DNA of 36,108 nt from a virus (lineage: Duplodnaviria > Caudoviricetes). A model generated the notes under the pieces. It did no database searches and was not told the origin of the DNA. It worked only from the letters and a program-made list of their open reading frames with translations. Position numbers and translations under genes: made by a program. Every line of letters begins with the position of its first letter. Position 1 is the first letter of the stretch. Shown here piece after piece: positions 9,775 through 22,919 of the stretch. Where the stretch lies: positions 1 to 36,108 of the IMG/VR virus record IMGVR_UViG_3300023283_000215. One strand, given 5' to 3'.

Positions 9775-10143
9775 ATGTCGGCAAATATCGAAGAGGCTCT
9801 TTACAGCCCGGTCATTGATTCCCTTCCGGCGAATCTCAAGAACTTTGAACCGGAGGATTTTCATCCCTGTTCGGGTTCGGTCCTGGTGGTGATTCCCCCG
9901 CCGGAGGATCGAGTAGGAAGTATCCACCTTCCCGAAATTGCTCAGACGCCCTCCCAGGCGGCGAAGGTTGCAGCGGTTCCGGAGGACGATAAATGTCCGG
10001 TTCGGCCCGGGGATTGGGTGTTTTTCCGCCATTCAGCCGCTGTAACCCTGGAGTTGGGCGGCCGGAAGGATCTTGGATTGCTGAACTATAGCGACGGACC
10101 TTCTTCGGAGATTATCGGCTTTATCCGGGGGTCCGATCTTTGA
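9775..10143 (+). CDS. groES: GroES/Cpn10-like co-chaperonin
   Basis: FHPCSGSVLVV (cf. PLxDRVLV), mobile-loop-like GSIHLPE, AKVAAV, VRPGDWVFF, terminal EIIGFI. Confidence 0.82.
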   Translation: MSANIEEALYSPVIDSLPANLKNFEPEDFHPCSGSVLVVIPPPEDRVGSIHLPEIAQTPSQAAKVAAVPEDDKCPVRPGDWVFFRHSAAVTLELGGRKDLGLLNYSDGPSSEIIGFIRGSDL

Positions 10144-17675: not shown

Positions 17676-18902
17676 ATGGAACAAAGCTTATTTCCAGATC
17701 TTTTGGGCGTGGCGGACGCCGTAATTGGTTTTTTAAATCTTCTTGGAACTCTTTTCACAGGTAGTGTGGCGGCGGCCCGGAATGCCCGGGCCGAGCAAAG
17801 GCTCGATGAGTTTACGGATCAGTTCCAGGATCAGTTTTCCGATGTCCAGACGGGCGCCCTTCAGGATCTCGAGGAAGCTATTCTAGGAGGTGACTTATTC
17901 GACGTTGGCCAGACTCAATTGGATACGTTCCTGGAAAATCGTCCTTCGGATGAGGAGATTCTTTTCTCGGAAGGTTTTACCGGGTTCGACGAATTTGGTA
18001 CGGCGCTTGAGGAAGCCCAGAATCTCAGTACGGAATCCGCCCAGGCCCTTCCTGGAACGGTAGATGCCCGGCTGGACGAGATTTTCGGTGCGGCTGGAGC
18101 AGGTATTTCCCAATTGGCACAGCAGGGTCGAACGACCCAGGAGGAACTTCTATCCGGGGTGGATCTTCTGGACACCGATTTGTCGGATGTTCTCCAGGGG
18201 GATCTATCGAGGATTGTACAGACGTCTCAACGAAACATCGGGCGCCGACAGCGATTGGCTTCTGCGAACGTTTTGGAGCAGGCCGGATCCCTGGAGAATG
18301 CTGAGCGGCAACTGGAGGACATTGCGATACAGGGTACGGAGTCCCAACGAAACGCGGCGTTGCAGGCACAGGCCCGGAATCGGGCGAGGACGCAGGCGGC
18401 CCAGCAATTCAATGCTCAACTCCAATCCCAGGCGGCCAATCTGGCGGCCCAGATCGGGGCCAATCTTTCGGCTGCTCAGATTGGAGCAACCAAGGACTTT
18501 GCCACAACTCAGGCAGCCGAGTTCAGTGACGCGGAGCAACTTGCCAGTCAGATTCTTTCCCAGGACTTTGCAACCGCTTCCGACGCTCTTCTGGGTGAAT
18601 TGGAACTTCAGATCGATGCCTTCGGAGAGGATCGGGACACTGCCCTTAAGCTTCTGGATGCCCAAGTTCTATTGGAAGGTTTGGCGGAGCAGGACCAGAT
18701 TGATGAAACCCGGGCGATTGCCGGGTTGGTTGAAACCGAATTGGGGTTGTTGGATCGTCTCCTTGGATTCGGTGGTGTCTTGACAGGTGCAGGCGCTTTG
18801 GAAGAACTGTTCCTGGACGAACGGGATCTGGGGAACCGGTTGTTCGGTCCTTTCGAACAGCGGATTAAGAGTGAAACTGACACAGGTTTTCTCGGATTTT
18901 AG
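17676..18902 (+). CDS. Internal virion / DNA ejection protein (very acidic, A/Q/L-rich)
   Basis: Directly after the nozzle gene; helical, hydrophobic N-terminus; no Y, W, C, H or internal M. Confidence 0.62.
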   Translation: MEQSLFPDLLGVADAVIGFLNLLGTLFTGSVAAARNARAEQRLDEFTDQFQDQFSDVQTGALQDLEEAILGGDLFDVGQTQLDTFLENRPSDEEILFSEGFTGFDEFGTALEEAQNLSTESAQALPGTVDARLDEIFGAAGAGISQLAQQGRTTQEELLSGVDLLDTDLSDVLQGDLSRIVQTSQRNIGRRQRLASANVLEQAGSLENAERQLEDIAIQGTESQRNAALQAQARNRARTQAAQQFNAQLQSQAANLAAQIGANLSAAQIGATKDFATTQAAEFSDAEQLASQILSQDFATASDALLGELELQIDAFGEDRDTALKLLDAQVLLEGLAEQDQIDETRAIAGLVETELGLLDRLLGFGGVLTGAGALEELFLDERDLGNRLFGPFEQRIKSETDTGFLGF

Positions 18903-18914
18903 GAGGTGGTTACC

Positions 18915-19382
18915 GTGGGCTTTTTCTCTTTTTTGTTGTTTGTTCCAATCGGTTTGATTCTTCTTTCCGGACTTCGGATTTTCCCAGCTTTGGGATTGGG
19001 CGGTCTGGCTGGTTTAGGCCCTACTGTTGGGAGCACATTGGGCGCATTGGGCACCGGAGCCGCCGGCGTGGGTCTGGGTCTTGCGGGGCTTCCCATTGCG
19101 CCGGGTCTGGGTCCGGCCGGTCAAATCGGTGCTTTGTCGGGTTTTGGTCTTGGTGCTGCCAATGATATTTCCGCGGGCAGGCGCAAGACCTGGGGCGGGC
19201 TGCTGGCCGCTGCTGCCCTGGCCCATCCCGGAATTTTGCGAATCGGGGGCGAAAGGAACGCGGGAGTACCGAAGAACCCACAGGTGACCACTACTTCCGA
19301 CGAAAATCCCCTGTCCGGTTTTTTTGACAAGGAAGAGGATCTATCAAAGGCTATTCGCGCTCTGGGACTTGGCCTTCGTTGA
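18915..19382 (+). CDS. Gly/Leu/Ala-rich membrane-active ejection (pilot-like) protein
   Basis: AGGAGG (18901-18906) favours GTG 18915; hydrophobic N-terminus and glycine-zipper-like stretch. Confidence 0.6.
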   Translation: MGFFSFLLFVPIGLILLSGLRIFPALGLGGLAGLGPTVGSTLGALGTGAAGVGLGLAGLPIAPGLGPAGQIGALSGFGLGAANDISAGRRKTWGGLLAAAALAHPGILRIGGERNAGVPKNPQVTTTSDENPLSGFFDKEEDLSKAIRALGLGLR

Positions 19383-19411
19383 ATACCGACTTTTGAGATT
19401 GGGAGGTTAGT

Positions 19412-20923
19412 ATGCCGACAATTATTCAAGGACCAAGGGTTCCATCCGTTGTTGTTCCTCCGGCGCCGCCTCCTGCCCGTTCGGATGGAGGCATAGGTGA
19501 GTTCCTGGCTCTTCTTCAGATTCTGAACAATCAGAATCTCTCTGAGCGCCGTTTGGACCTGGAAGAATCCACATCCAATTTTCGGTTGAAACTCGAACAG
19601 CAAGCCGCTGAGGACATTGCAGCGCATCGGGCGAACATGGCGGAGTTGGAACGGCGTCAGCTTGAAATTGCCGAGAGAACATCCGGCATACAGGAAGGCA
19701 ATGCGCTGATTGAACGTGGCCGGTTCCTGACCGAATCCAGCAGGGGGAATCTGGAAAATGTTCTCCGGCAAAGTTTAAACCAGGCGGAAAACGAGGTCGA
19801 GATTCAGTTGGAACAGGGGGAAGGTCTGGTTTCCTCCTTCATTCCCAAAATTCGAAACGTAACCCGAAAACCTTCCACCGATCTGGATTCGTTTCTCCGG
19901 GAGGACTTCCCGGGAATGATTCAAAGCGTGTTGGACGAATCGGAAAATCCGATTCAGTTGCAATCGGCTCTGGATGAGATTACCCGGAGTTTCAGCAATC
20001 TTTCGGCTGAGCGATTTGATGAAAACCCGGAGTTATTTGAAAGGCTTGGAACCGATCTTTCAGAGCTTCGACAAGATGTTTTCCGAAGATCGAATCGGTT
20101 CCAGGATACGATACTCCAGGAAGTTCGAACGGAAGCCAACAACCGGGTCTTGTCTCTTACCAATGATTTCGCGGTCAATCTCTCCCAGGCTGCCGATACC
20201 GGGAATCCTCGTTTTCTGACCGGAGCGATTTCCGAATTTCGGGACAGATCCTTGAACGTGGAACCTGTTGATGTGAGGGAAAGAATTCGATCGATTCAGG
20301 AGAATCAGGGGGAAGGTGGGTTAAGCTTTTCCCCGGTTTTCGAGGACGTTCCGGACAATCCTTTCTTGCAGGAAGCTCTTCAGGTCCAGGAAGAACGGGA
20401 CCGACAGAACAAGAAAGCGGGAAAAGAGATTGTGCAACAATTGGAAGCGGGGGATCTTTTGGGTGCGGGAGCCAATCTTCTGGGTCTTCTCGGACGAAAA
20501 ACGGCTAATCTTGGTGCCGCTTCGTCGAGAGGGATAGGTCAGTTTATTCTGCAAGGGGGAACTCTTGCTCCCCGGACTCAGGATCCGTTGCATATACCAA
20601 CCTTACCGGATGCTCCGTCTCCCCTTCCCCAGGGGGAGCCTTCGACGTTCCGGGCCCCTCCCGGGCTGAATTTCTTCCGGGCTATACAGGAAGCCCAGAA
20701 CAACGAGGATCTTCTGATTCCCCAGGGGGAGCCTCCAGCGTTCCTGGCCCCTCCCGGGCTGAATTTCTTCCGGGCTATACAGGAAGCCCAGAACAACGAG
20801 GATCTTCTGATTCCCCAGGGGGAGTCTTCGACGGTCCGGGTCCCTCCCGGGCTGAATCTCTTTCGGGCTATACGGGAAGTCCAGAACGAAGAGGATCTTC
20901 TGAATCGTCTTTTTCAGGAATAA
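19412..20923 (+). CDS. Internal virion / ejection protein with C-terminal 31-aa repeats
   Basis: GGGAGG SD; helical, E/Q/R/L-rich; no Y, W or C. Confidence 0.6.
   Translation: MPTIIQGPRVPSVVVPPAPPPARSDGGIGEFLALLQILNNQNLSERRLDLEESTSNFRLKLEQQAAEDIAAHRANMAELERRQLEIAERTSGIQEGNALIERGRFLTESSRGNLENVLRQSLNQAENEVEIQLEQGEGLVSSFIPKIRNVTRKPSTDLDSFLREDFPGMIQSVLDESENPIQLQSALDEITRSFSNLSAERFDENPELFERLGTDLSELRQDVFRRSNRFQDTILQEVRTEANNRVLSLTNDFAVNLSQAADTGNPRFLTGAISEFRDRSLNVEPVDVRERIRSIQENQGEGGLSFSPVFEDVPDNPFLQEALQVQEERDRQNKKAGKEIVQQLEAGDLLGAGANLLGLLGRKTANLGAASSRGIGQFILQGGTLAPRTQDPLHIPTLPDAPSPLPQGEPSTFRAPPGLNFFRAIQEAQNNEDLLIPQGEPPAFLAPPGLNFFRAIQEAQNNEDLLIPQGESSTVRVPPGLNLFRAIREVQNEEDLLNRLFQE
20627..20903 (+). 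repeat. Three tandem 93-bp coding repeats
   Basis: Units start at 20627, 20720 and 20813 and encode PQGExxxxxxPPGLNxFRAIxExQNxEDLL. Confidence 0.95.
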
Positions 20924-20926
20924 CAA

Positions 20927-21352
20927 ATGCCCCTTCTTCTTAGAATCTTGCCCTTCATTCTCGGTATCGGTGGAGAGATTGCCGCTCCTCGTATTTTGAA
21001 GGCGTTGTCGAATCGTCTGGCGAAATCGGCTCCTTCTTCCGGGGCGGGTAAACGGGCGGCTGAACTGGCTTCTCGGTCCCTTGGTTCTCCGGGGGCGGAC
21101 CTGGCCAGTCGGATTGCCGGCGGGGGCGCGGGTTTTCTGGCGGGGGATCTTCTTCTTCGTCCTCCCGATGATCCCGCGGCAAGTTCCGCCAATTCGGATC
21201 AATTGGCTGCTCTTACATCTTTGCGGAATCTTCCGAATCGGACAACAAGTCTCGGAAATCAATTGGCGTTTCGGGACCAGCTTCAGGCTGAAGTCGAGGC
21301 CGGGAACCTGGCGCCTCTTTTGGAAGAACTCGGAATTTCCGGAGGTATCTAA
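20927..21352 (+). CDS. Small A/G/L-rich ejection-type protein
   Basis: 141 aa; hydrophobic N-terminus and GGGAGFLAG segment. Confidence 0.55.
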   Translation: MPLLLRILPFILGIGGEIAAPRILKALSNRLAKSAPSSGAGKRAAELASRSLGSPGADLASRIAGGGAGFLAGDLLLRPPDDPAASSANSDQLAALTSLRNLPNRTTSLGNQLAFRDQLQAEVEAGNLAPLLEELGISGGI

Positions 21353-22566
21353 TGGCTGAAAGAACTTCAGCTCTACTCGAACAAATTCTTCCGGTTATCG
21401 AAGGTCTGATTCAAAGTCCGGGTTTCGAAGAATTTTTAAACGAGGATGTTGCCGAACTCGCCAAGAGTCTGCGGGACAAATTGTTGACCAACGAAGAGAA
21501 GAACCTTTCTTTCGAGCGTCAGCTTACCTTGCTCCGGGAGAAGGCGAATCGAGAAGAAGACGCCAAGGTTCTTTCGGGTGAGGTTCAGGAGAATCTCGTC
21601 AAGGTCCGGGAACAGCGGGACATTAATCTGGAACGAACGAGGACGGAGGAACTCCAACAACGGGCTCGTGTTCGAACCGATGAAACCCTCCGGCTGGAGC
21701 GGGAGAGGCAAAGGATAGAACAGGAGGCAAAAGAAACTCAGAGAACTCAGCGTCTGGAAACCCTGGAAGATGAGATCAAGGATCTCAGGAGTCGGGTCGA
21801 GAAAGGAACTATTTCCGAGGATGTTCTCGGTTCGAGGCTTCAGTCCATTGAAAGTGAGAATCCCCAGAAGGCTGCGGTCCTGGACGAAATCCGATCCGAC
21901 CAGGCTGCCCGGATTGAAACGACTCGGCAGACGATCCAGAACCAGATTCGGGAACGTTTTAACATTCCTTCTGACCAATCTCTTCCAGGAGAGATTACCA
22001 ATGCGGTTACAAGCGAGATCAAGACTTCCTCGCCTCGCGAGCAGGATGTTCAAAAGATCTTCCGCCAAGCAGAGCCGATTGTTGCCCTGGAGCGTGAGCT
22101 TAGATCCAGGGGTTTGGATCCGGCGGACGTAGCCCGGGGCAGGATTCGGGGCAAGGGATTATTGGCCAATCTTCCGTTTGTTTCGGGCGGCGGGGAGACC
22201 GCGGCTGCTGAAGCCCTGGAATCGTTTCGCCGGAATCCATCCGGTTCAGCCGGCAAGGCTGTATCTCAAACCTTAAAGGGTCTCCGGGGCGCCCGTCTGG
22301 GGCGTCTCGGTATAGCCGGAGGCGCAGCGGCTCTTCTGGCTGCTTTGTTCTCTAGAGACAGAGAGGATCAATCCCAGGGTCAGCAATTGCCTCCTTTGCT
22401 TCAACTTCAGCTTATGCAACAACTCGGAGAATTGGAGAATAACAATCTTCTTACCCAGTCCCTGGTTCAGTCCCGCGGCGCGGCGGCTGACCGGAACCAG
22501 GCTCAGGCGGACTTGACTCGGGCAAAGCTCTTGCAGTTGATGGGGGCTTCCGGGGGTGGTCTCTAA
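21352..22566 (+). CDS. Coiled-coil internal virion / ejection protein
   Basis: GGAGG SD, TAATG coupling; long E/R coiled coil and TM-like LGIAGGAAALLAALF. Confidence 0.6.
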   Translation: MAERTSALLEQILPVIEGLIQSPGFEEFLNEDVAELAKSLRDKLLTNEEKNLSFERQLTLLREKANREEDAKVLSGEVQENLVKVREQRDINLERTRTEELQQRARVRTDETLRLERERQRIEQEAKETQRTQRLETLEDEIKDLRSRVEKGTISEDVLGSRLQSIESENPQKAAVLDEIRSDQAARIETTRQTIQNQIRERFNIPSDQSLPGEITNAVTSEIKTSSPREQDVQKIFRQAEPIVALERELRSRGLDPADVARGRIRGKGLLANLPFVSGGGETAAAEALESFRRNPSGSAGKAVSQTLKGLRGARLGRLGIAGGAAALLAALFSRDREDQSQGQQLPPLLQLQLMQQLGELENNNLLTQSLVQSRGAAADRNQAQADLTRAKLLQLMGASGGGL

Positions 22567-22592: not shown

Positions 22593-22919
22593 TTGAGGTC
22601 GGACAAATGGAAAAGAAAAAGGAGGAAAGTTCTAACACGAGCCGGTCACAAGTGTGAGAAATGCGGTTCCCGGACTTGTCTGGAAGTTCATCATCTGAAT
22701 TACGACTCCTTTAGAAAGGAACAATTGTCGGATCTTCAGGTTTTGTGTCGTTCCTGCCACCGCAAAGCGGACCGATTACGAAAATGGAAATCCAGGGTGA
22801 ACGGTTGGATGGTAAAGGTACGCGGCAGCGAGTGGAATAAATCGTTTACCTGGGAGAAAGCAGAACGGGAGTTCCTTTCCTGGCTGAAAGTACGACAGTC
22901 GAAACGTCGTAAAAGGTAA
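22593..22919 (+). CDS. HNH endonuclease
   Basis: W..KR..VL.RA..KCEKC...LEVHH..Y......DLQVLCRSCH. Confidence 0.88.
   Translation: MRSDKWKRKRRKVLTRAGHKCEKCGSRTCLEVHHLNYDSFRKEQLSDLQVLCRSCHRKADRLRKWKSRVNGWMVKVRGSEWNKSFTWEKAEREFLSWLKVRQSKRRKR

Follow-up and report, generated by a model that had tools for sequence, protein, structure and literature searches.

Five predicted ejection proteins of a podophage without tyrosine and cysteine, and recurring loss of reactive residues in its family

The virus record IMGVR_UViG_3300023283_000215 (Caudoviricetes; 36,108 nucleotides, hereafter the window) contains five consecutive open reading frames (ORFs), e1 to e5, whose position and composition make them likely genes for ejection proteins of small and medium size in a podophage. 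A recount of their 1,609 non-initiator residues found no Tyr, no Cys, one Trp, three His and four Met, as counted in an earlier note made from this DNA, which had also remarked that Phe stays common; 69 Phe are present where 67 were expected from a hand-picked set of 39 further ORFs in the window (9,789 amino acids). By that baseline 39 Tyr were expected (p 7e-18), and Lys (33 vs 76 expected) and Val (61 vs 112) were low as well. Tyr, Trp, His, Cys and Met together make up 0.5% of the block, the lowest among 24 syntenic blocks, the next being 2.3%; Tyr alone ranges from 0 to 2.6% over these blocks, with the window again lowest. On balance we think it probable, if only by a little, that the lack of Tyr, Trp, Met, Cys and His, the halved Lys and an avoidance of Asn-Gly (NG) and Asp-Gly (DG) come from selection for proteins that escape chemical damage during storage in the virion, and selection is likely because separate relatives show the same losses.

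Syntenic loci were found by profiles of the tail nozzle and of a 964-amino-acid protein that flank the block. Complete blocks came from 11 near and 12 distant relatives; with the window these make 24 blocks, comprising a near set of 12 that includes the window and a distant set of 12. Left out were loci that end before the block (L004, L006, L008, L011 and L014), copies of L001 or L016 (L009, L010, L018 and L020), partial or apparent copies of L074, L069 and L079 (L075, L076 and L078), and three loci with no upstream DNA (G834, G911 and G921). The counts also omit the Hint domains of six e1 orthologs and extra genes in the L001, L007, L019 and G773 blocks. Four low-Tyr blocks of the near set (the window, L002, L012 and L013), named from their composition, are here called purged, and the other eight unpurged.

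The eight unpurged relatives and unrelated ejection proteins of <700 amino acids served as fairer baselines. Against the eight relatives, Tyr (0 observed, 21.9 expected, p 3e-10), Met (4 vs 71.5, p 2e-26), Trp (1 vs 10.6, p 3e-4) and Lys (33 vs 60.9, p 5e-5; about halved) were deficient, the deficit in His was marginal (3 vs 9.5, p 0.015), and Cys (0 vs 0.1, p 0.87) and Val (61 vs 64.2, p 0.37) were not depleted. The unrelated proteins predicted 5.5 His (p 0.20) and 1.0 Cys. Because these deficits vanish or shrink under the fairer baselines, the lack of Cys, the low Val and most of the lack of His are ordinary for ejection proteins, and the absence of Cys and scarcity of His can no longer be counted as special features, as the earlier note had done. 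What sets the composition apart is the loss of Tyr, Met, Trp and about half of the Lys, with Phe, Leu/Ile and Arg in their stead.

At codon positions 2-3 and 3-1 of the block, TA and TG dinucleotides occur at normal levels, and the shifted sense frames of the five ORFs do contain Tyr, Trp and Cys codons; therefore the loss acts on the protein and not on the DNA, and avoidance of a DNA motif as its cause was ruled out. An explanation by neutral drift or by mutational bias, acting on helical proteins that evolve fast and were poor in Tyr to begin with, could draw on the low family baseline (1.0-1.8% Tyr in the eight unpurged relatives) and on the low identity of the block proteins to those of the sister phage, about 21%. 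We regard it as very unlikely, given the p values for Tyr and Met against that same baseline, the intact DNA-level motifs, the recurrence of the loss in separate lineages, and a G+C content of the window (53%, below 13 of 14 distinct related loci) that should favor Tyr, Met and Lys codons.

The exchanges themselves run toward inert analogues, with Met giving way to Leu or Ile, Lys to Arg, and Tyr and Trp being balanced by Phe. Across the 12 near blocks, Tyr+Trp+Phe (4.2-5.9%), Met+Leu (12.3-16.3%) and Lys+Arg (9.2-11.7%) are nearly constant sums, and Tyr correlates with Phe (rho -0.78), Met (+0.71), Lys (+0.73) and His (0.64), and more weakly with Trp (0.48, p 0.11). At aligned sites between the window block and that of the sister phage, the counts were 16 vs 1 for Met to Leu, 7 vs 0 for Met to Ile and 9 vs 3 for Lys to Arg, while in the nozzle Tyr to Phe stood at 10 vs 1 (against L001), 7 vs 1 and 5 vs 2 in comparisons with three relatives. 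Two of the substitutions proposed in the earlier note were thus found, Met to Leu in the block and Tyr to Phe in the nozzle; Tyr to Phe at single sites within the block was not demonstrable at an identity near 21% (one of 15 aligned Tyr vs the sister phage). Tyr is likewise correlated with Phe (-0.75) and Trp (+0.59) in the 12 distant blocks, and phylogenetic contrasts over 119 gp16-like proteins gave correlations of 0.25 for Tyr-Trp, 0.22 for Tyr-Met, 0.23 for Trp-Met and 0.33 for Met-His (p<0.02), with Tyr-His at 0.04. A well-supported clade of distant gp16-like proteins (P0099, P0100, P0105 and P0076) has the same shift, with 0.7-1.1% Tyr, 0-0.6% Trp and 5.3-6.9% Phe.

The loss has arisen or been reversed at least twice in the family. 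In the trees the window falls beside L005/L017 and L007, whose blocks have 1.2-1.4% Tyr and >4% Met, so that its closest relative retains Tyr, and a single clade for the four purged blocks was rejected by the approximately unbiased (AU) test, with p 0.0045 for the block and 9e-7 for nozzle plus 964-aa protein. The trees were quick and unrooted, the block tree had long branches, and repeated gain and reversal are indistinguishable in them.

The shift is confined to virion proteins and spares cytoplasmic ones. Five replication proteins compared with the sister phage showed no asymmetry (Met/Leu 8/8, Tyr/Phe 5/3) and the terminase none against four relatives, which rules out a genome-wide compositional bias as the cause. 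Non-conserved Tyr+Trp+Cys per 100 amino acids, in low vs other phages, was 0.81 vs 1.86 in the 964-aa protein, 1.91 vs 2.99 in the nozzle, 1.64 vs 2.95 in the putative portal and 2.43 vs 3.61 in the capsid (p 0.02), with a borderline result for the scaffold (p 0.08); these p values ignore relatedness, and portal, scaffold, capsid and adaptor were assigned by gene order and size. The terminase showed no decrease (4.47 vs 3.92), its low group being the window only. Private Tyr in the portal numbered one in the window and 7-12 in six unpurged relatives, and the 964-aa protein has kept 10 conserved Tyr and only three private ones. The sharp boundary described in the earlier note therefore holds on the side of the HNH gene, which is of ordinary composition, and softens elsewhere, the nozzle, portal and 964-aa protein sharing a weaker shift; the 964-aa protein, said there to be exempt, has shifted too. 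Since these three proteins seem to have lost only dispensable residues, it is structural constraint, not exemption, that sets the edge of the block.

Biosynthetic economy, host auxotrophy or a tRNA shortage would remove costly residues, and Trp, Tyr, His and Met are costly; the small capsid and scaffold shifts of purged phages would also fit. This explanation is largely refuted and in our view highly improbable: with Phe in place of Tyr the mean cost per residue changes little (20.44 vs 20.84), 11 Tyr and 16 Met remain in the high-copy capsid, and adjoining late genes use these codons. A head-maturation protease cutting at Tyr could select against Tyr inside the head, which would suit the loss of private Tyr from the portal and 964-aa protein, both inside or facing the head. 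We give it equally little credence. No protease was recognized among the 36 window proteins scanned or for a 173-aa gene of the head region, in a window that covers about 67% of the genome; in the scaffold, 333 amino acids long, the 4 Tyr share no motif; and the nozzle, which is added outside the head, shifts too, while the loss of Met and Lys would be left unexplained.

A second signature concerns the order of residues. NG and DG, known hot spots of isoaspartate formation, together occur once in the window block, against 10 of the reversed pairs GN and GD, and 30 vs 127 times in the 12 near blocks. The purged blocks give 8 vs 45 and the unpurged 22 vs 82, and for the window, the purged and the unpurged blocks alike none of 300 local shuffles was as low. 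The 12 distant blocks repeat the avoidance (63 vs 137, p 2e-7), and NG, DG and DS were the three most asymmetric of 113 dipeptide pairs tested. The bias was absent from the scaffold (20 vs 17), capsid, portal, nozzle and cytoplasmic proteins. The avoidance is thus family-wide, and it is weaker in unrelated phages. Small ejection proteins of such phages (L038, L044 and others) are also low in NG/DG (pooled 26 vs 55, p 0.002), with 5 vs 15 in P22 and 2 vs 10 in LUZ24. NG is the fastest-deamidating pair in unstructured peptides, according to the parts of PMC4682632 available to us, and DG sites are given as the most frequent isomerization sites in aged proteins in the accessible portions of PMC11843600.

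Some of these patterns could come from biophysical tuning, in which Phe, Leu, Ile and Arg in place of the hydrogen-bonding, interface-seeking Tyr, Trp, His, Lys and Met, and fewer NG/DG turns, would keep the chains unaggregated and aid channel threading and the crossing of a particular host membrane. We hold this to be improbable, although the constant aromatic and aliphatic totals are what it would give, as is NG/DG avoidance both in the 24 pooled family blocks and in the unrelated small ejection proteins. Orthologs with 14-25 Tyr per block occupy the same genomic slot, the scaffold has no NG/DG bias, and the window block, with a mean hydropathy of -0.32, does not stand out from its unpurged relatives (-0.22 to -0.45). 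The purge is, moreover, equally complete in charged and hydrophobic contexts.

An ejection role for the five genes, as assigned in the earlier note, is very likely because they are flanked by a podophage nozzle and a putative T7 gp16-like internal virion protein. The structure model of the nozzle (predicted local distance difference test, pLDDT, 79) has podophage tail nozzles as its top Foldseek matches, that of cyanophage A4 being best (E 6e-19), with further matches to Carin-1, SU10, crAss001 and T7. The 964-aa model (pLDDT 62) gave weak matches in a viral library (E 2e-5 to 1e-3, template modeling score about 0.13), some of them to internal virion proteins, namely those of VP2 and LKA1 (E 2e-4 to 5e-4); in the PDB it had no match at E<=0.001, the PhiM1 ejectosome ranking second (E 0.17). 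The order of nozzle, block and large gp16-like gene is common to the 24 blocks. Orthologs of e1 lie directly downstream of the nozzle in 11 of 11 near relatives, e2 has syntenic orthologs, and alignments show a hydrophobic N-terminus of e4 conserved across the family and a conserved C-terminal motif of e5, hydrophobic plus Gln/Met. A separate e5 homolog (P0161; 479 amino acids, 33% identity) likewise has no Tyr, Trp or Cys. None of the five ORFs had a Pfam or PHROG match above cut-off in the scan of 36 window proteins, and e1 found no homolog except itself among 7,999 candidates scored. By Atlas features e1 leaned weakly to clusters of P22_gp7, with a score of 0.89 and the family present on 13% of the members. 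Homology of e1 to the P22 gp7 family (PF25688) was not found, with an hhalign probability of 0.1% and a Pfam match in none of 11 e1 orthologs.

How chemical damage might act on such proteins can be outlined. The five would be stored poorly folded beside DNA inside the virion, which presumably has neither repair nor turnover, so that damage would build up unrepaired; they would then have to thread the portal-nozzle channel and refold. One dityrosine, one Lys, His or Trp adduct or one protein-DNA cross-link would likely be enough to block injection, as would a Met sulfoxide or an isoaspartate kink, while a folded shell would tolerate such damage. His and Lys add to oxidized or halogenated partners and to damaged DNA. 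With few structurally required residues, as the identity of about 21% to the sister phage indicates, all reactive side chains would be replaceable in the five proteins, and the more conserved 964-aa protein, nozzle and portal would have lost the dispensable ones only. Met, Tyr, Trp and Cys stand out among the residues as easily oxidized, as far as the accessible text of PMC8565380 goes. The purge of Tyr, Trp, Met and Lys would then be an added, lineage-specific layer atop the family-wide NG/DG avoidance, its driver likely an oxidizing or halogenating agent or long waits between hosts.

Several observations weigh against selection by damage in the virion. The ejection identity comes from synteny, none of the five proteins having detected homology to known ejection proteins. 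The compositional axis is not fully joint: the G773 block has no Trp and yet the most Tyr; in the 12 distant blocks Met, His and Lys have no significant correlation with Tyr; and a raw Tyr-Trp correlation over 105 proteins drops to 0.12 without one four-member clade. The adaptor shows no shift in non-conserved Tyr+Trp+Cys. The strength of the NG/DG avoidance does not follow that of the Tyr/Trp/Met purge (rho -0.07 over 109 proteins; 0.42, p 0.17, over 12 blocks), and the two signatures may therefore have different causes. NG and DG favor tight turns and QG is below GQ too in the distant blocks (81 vs 112), so that part of the NG/DG bias may be structural. No oxidizing habitat was found, purged L002 and L012 being from anoxic deep sediment; phages of three oxidase-bearing hosts (G773, G001 and G002) keep 1.0-1.8% Tyr; the marine podophages P-SSP7 (3.2% Tyr) and HTVC010P (4.1%) are unpurged; and L077 has no integrase and yet 2.3% Tyr.

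Habitat could be tied to three of the 24 blocks. The sister phage L017 is from an estuarine sulfate-methane transition zone (PMC4411801, consulted in part). An Arctic core 11.2 m long yielded L002 and L012, in its samples GS10_PC15_940 and _1060, according to the parts of PMC6401483 and bioRxiv 10.1101/577767 that were accessible; we read 940 and 1060 as centimeters of core depth. The available portions of PMC3790079 describe this core as anoxic below about 1 m, ferruginous (iron-bearing) and without detectable sulfide, and as a debris flow below 5.5 m, and the DNA of L002 and L012 may therefore be redeposited. A habitat for L001 was not found in the accessible part of PMC7449369. Heme-copper oxidase subunits were present in three of five host genomes tested, and an aerobic host as a predictor of the purge was unsupported, these three carrying unpurged or intermediate phages. 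The link to host or habitat expected in the earlier note was accordingly not borne out. Lifestyle gave mixed results as a predictor: the three Tyr-richest near relatives (G773, L001 and L019) are temperate, being an integrated prophage or bearing an integrase, which counts in favor of selection in the stored virion, but an integrase was found in none of five distant records tested, which span 0.8-2.6% Tyr.

An oxidant or enzyme of the host envelope (peroxidase, haloperoxidase, protease or Tyr-modifying defense) might instead attack the proteins during injection into certain planctomycete hosts. The patchiness of the purge across the tree is as host-specific pressure would give, the proteins that should pass through the envelope are the most strongly purged, and the purge is found in an anoxic habitat where ambient oxidants are scarce. 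We nevertheless consider this rather unlikely, if a little less so than biophysical tuning. The portal, and more weakly the capsid, shift too though outside the periplasm, and the portal does not enter the cell at infection, which also tells against the reactive host periplasm that the earlier note had proposed as cause. One enzyme would be unlikely to hit Tyr, Trp, Met and Lys and yet spare Phe, Leu and Arg.

The family apparently consists of hitherto undescribed podophages in planctomycete genomes, and the host of the window phage is probably a planctomycete. Two family members lie in metagenome-assembled genomes (MAGs) named Phycisphaerales and Planctomycetaceae, and the profile of the 964-aa protein matched 1 of 401, 2 of 401, 6 of 279 and 3 of 401 planctomycete genomes in overlapping samples. 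A further member lies within a 397-kb contig of the G773 genome, of the same class as the Phycisphaerales MAG, with host-like genes on both sides; its block has no Trp and 25 Tyr in 1,407 residues, and between its e3 and e4 lies an additional gene of 439 aa. Viral contigs scanned with the 964-aa and nozzle proteins singly gave no match, and no annotated phage matched the 964-aa protein or P0034. The window record, 36 kb long, also has matches to terminase, DNA polymerase A, helicase and primase. Contigs of one DNA run containing the stretch agree with the window, though that run may be its source and is thus not independent; no RNA run was listed as containing it.

Among known systems, we compared nine unrelated reference podophages (T7, P22, SU10, P-SSP7, epsilon15, phiKMV, BPP-1, LUZ24 and HTVC010P, without crAss001), taking their blocks from annotation or, where unnamed, by position. 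As in T7 (gp14-16), P22 (gp7, gp20 and gp16) and SU10 (gp20-24), the genes of the family follow the tail nozzle and have a large gp16-like last member, and their products are rich in Ala, Gly, Leu and Gln, with almost no Cys and little His. For five types of ejection protein SU10 is a precedent, on the evidence of the part of PMC9509320 available to us. The five differ in having no detectable sequence homology to known ejection proteins, and the references keep Tyr and have weaker NG/DG avoidance. In the nine references Cys is nearly absent, His is low in small ejection proteins and Tyr is 2.05-4.14%, so that unrelated podophages are not depleted of Tyr; the longest Tyr-free run is 114-288 residues in their blocks vs 1,609 in the window. 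Lignin peroxidase of Phanerochaete chrysosporium, with 0% Tyr, 0.87% Trp and 2.33% Met in the accessible text of PMC8565380, is an analogy and not a relative. It is exposed to strong oxidants, and it resembles the block in having few oxidizable residues and no Tyr; it differs in being a folded heme enzyme that makes its own oxidant, while here five non-enzymatic proteins are purged jointly, Met and Lys included. The N4 virion RNA polymerase is a Cys-free protein packaged in the virion and injected, and the 964-aa protein and all mature family blocks are likewise essentially Cys-free. Loss of Cys alone is the general case, and the purge of Tyr, Trp, Met and Lys and the NG/DG avoidance go beyond it. 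We found no description of a Tyr-free ejection block or of NG/DG avoidance in phage proteins, in a search that most subscription papers lay outside. As a machine the ejection block belongs to a familiar type; its composition, and the axis that recurs, appear to be undescribed.

The features discussed are listed in Table 1. Six of the 12 near-family phages have an e1 C-terminal domain that starts at a Cys after a Gly-rich linker and is Hint-like (self-cleaving). Pfam Hint was matched below cut-off in L002 (E 4e-6) and L015 (E 0.008), the other four being without a match, and the domain is not present in the window, L012, L013, L016, G773 or L005. Self-cleavage of this domain would leave mature e1 Cys-free. 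In the sister phage a 98-aa Peptidase_S74 ORF (an intramolecular chaperone; E 6e-14) lies directly after e1, where other relatives have the Hint-like domain. The L001 e1 extends about 230 amino acids beyond its Hint-like part, with an HGDL motif that we take to recall kinase-like folds and no Pfam match. Some unpurged relatives have an extra Tyr/Trp-rich gene inside the block, with up to 12 Tyr in 191 amino acids; such a gene is absent from the four purged blocks. Between its putative scaffold and capsid genes the window has a gene for a GroES-like co-chaperonin that is conserved in four relatives.

Table 1. Location of the ejection block, its neighbors and related features (window positions unless a locus is named)
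Feature	Position	Strand	Remarks
Putative portal, 686 aa	6711..8771	+	position after terminase plus size; no family match
GroES-like co-chaperonin gene	9775-10143		
Tail nozzle, T7 gp12-like, 1102 aa	14366..17674	+	structure model; milder loss of non-conserved Tyr/Trp/Cys
Five-ORF block	17676..22566		
e1, predicted first ejection protein, 408 aa	17676..18902	+	Tyr, Cys, Trp, His and internal Met all 0
e2, Gly/Leu/Ala-rich hydrophobic, 155-158 aa	18906..19382	+	Tyr 0, Cys 0, Met 0, Trp 1, His 1; probable start GTG 18915, 8 nt past AGGAGG, giving 155 aa
e3, 503 aa	19412..20923	+	Tyr 0, Cys 0, Trp 0, His 2, Met 2; tandem copies at end
e3 tandem copies	20625-20903		three 93-bp copies, 90% alike, encoding a 31-residue repeat
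e4, 141 aa	20927..21352	+	Tyr, Cys, Trp, His and Met all 0; hydrophobic N-terminus
e5, charged, 404 aa	21352..22566	+	Tyr, Cys, Trp and His 0; Met 2
HNH endonuclease	22593..22919	+	between e5 and 964-aa gene; ordinary composition, outside purge
Putative large ejection protein, T7 gp16-like, 964 aa	23149..26043	+	weak structural matches; Cys-free; conserved Tyr/Trp retained, private ones few
Hint-like e1 genes	L001:12817-15135, L002:13135-14967, L003:12553-14076, L007:2096-3682, L015:13165-14823, L019:3016-4575		
Peptidase_S74 ORF of sister phage	L005:7188-7484, L017:2-556		
Extra in-block genes	L001:17339-17917, L019:6670-7368, L007:4399-4983, L068:7985-9139		
Family member inside 397-kb contig	G773:C14:210312-236686	-	

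What limits the lifetime of a free phage particle is poorly known, and in the light of these sequences the injection proteins stored in it look like a weak point, for which two fixes recur in the family, the removal of reactive side chains and that of Asn-Gly and Asp-Gly sites. Both signatures can be counted in any podophage genome and are testable in laboratory phages such as T7, and the window block is in itself a rare reduced alphabet, a natural multi-protein machine that uses no Tyr or Cys and hardly any Trp, His or Met. It is tempting to speculate, though we hold it tentatively and with more doubt than belief, that ejection proteins carry a readable shelf-life code, in which all avoid isoaspartate hot spots and the lineages that wait longest or meet oxidants repeatedly strip Tyr, Trp, Met, His and Lys. 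If that were true, the end point would be an injection machine of 1,600 residues made with some 15 kinds of amino acid, damage to ejection proteins would be a main cause of phage decay, and ejectosome composition would report the virion residence time and decay chemistry of uncultured phages.

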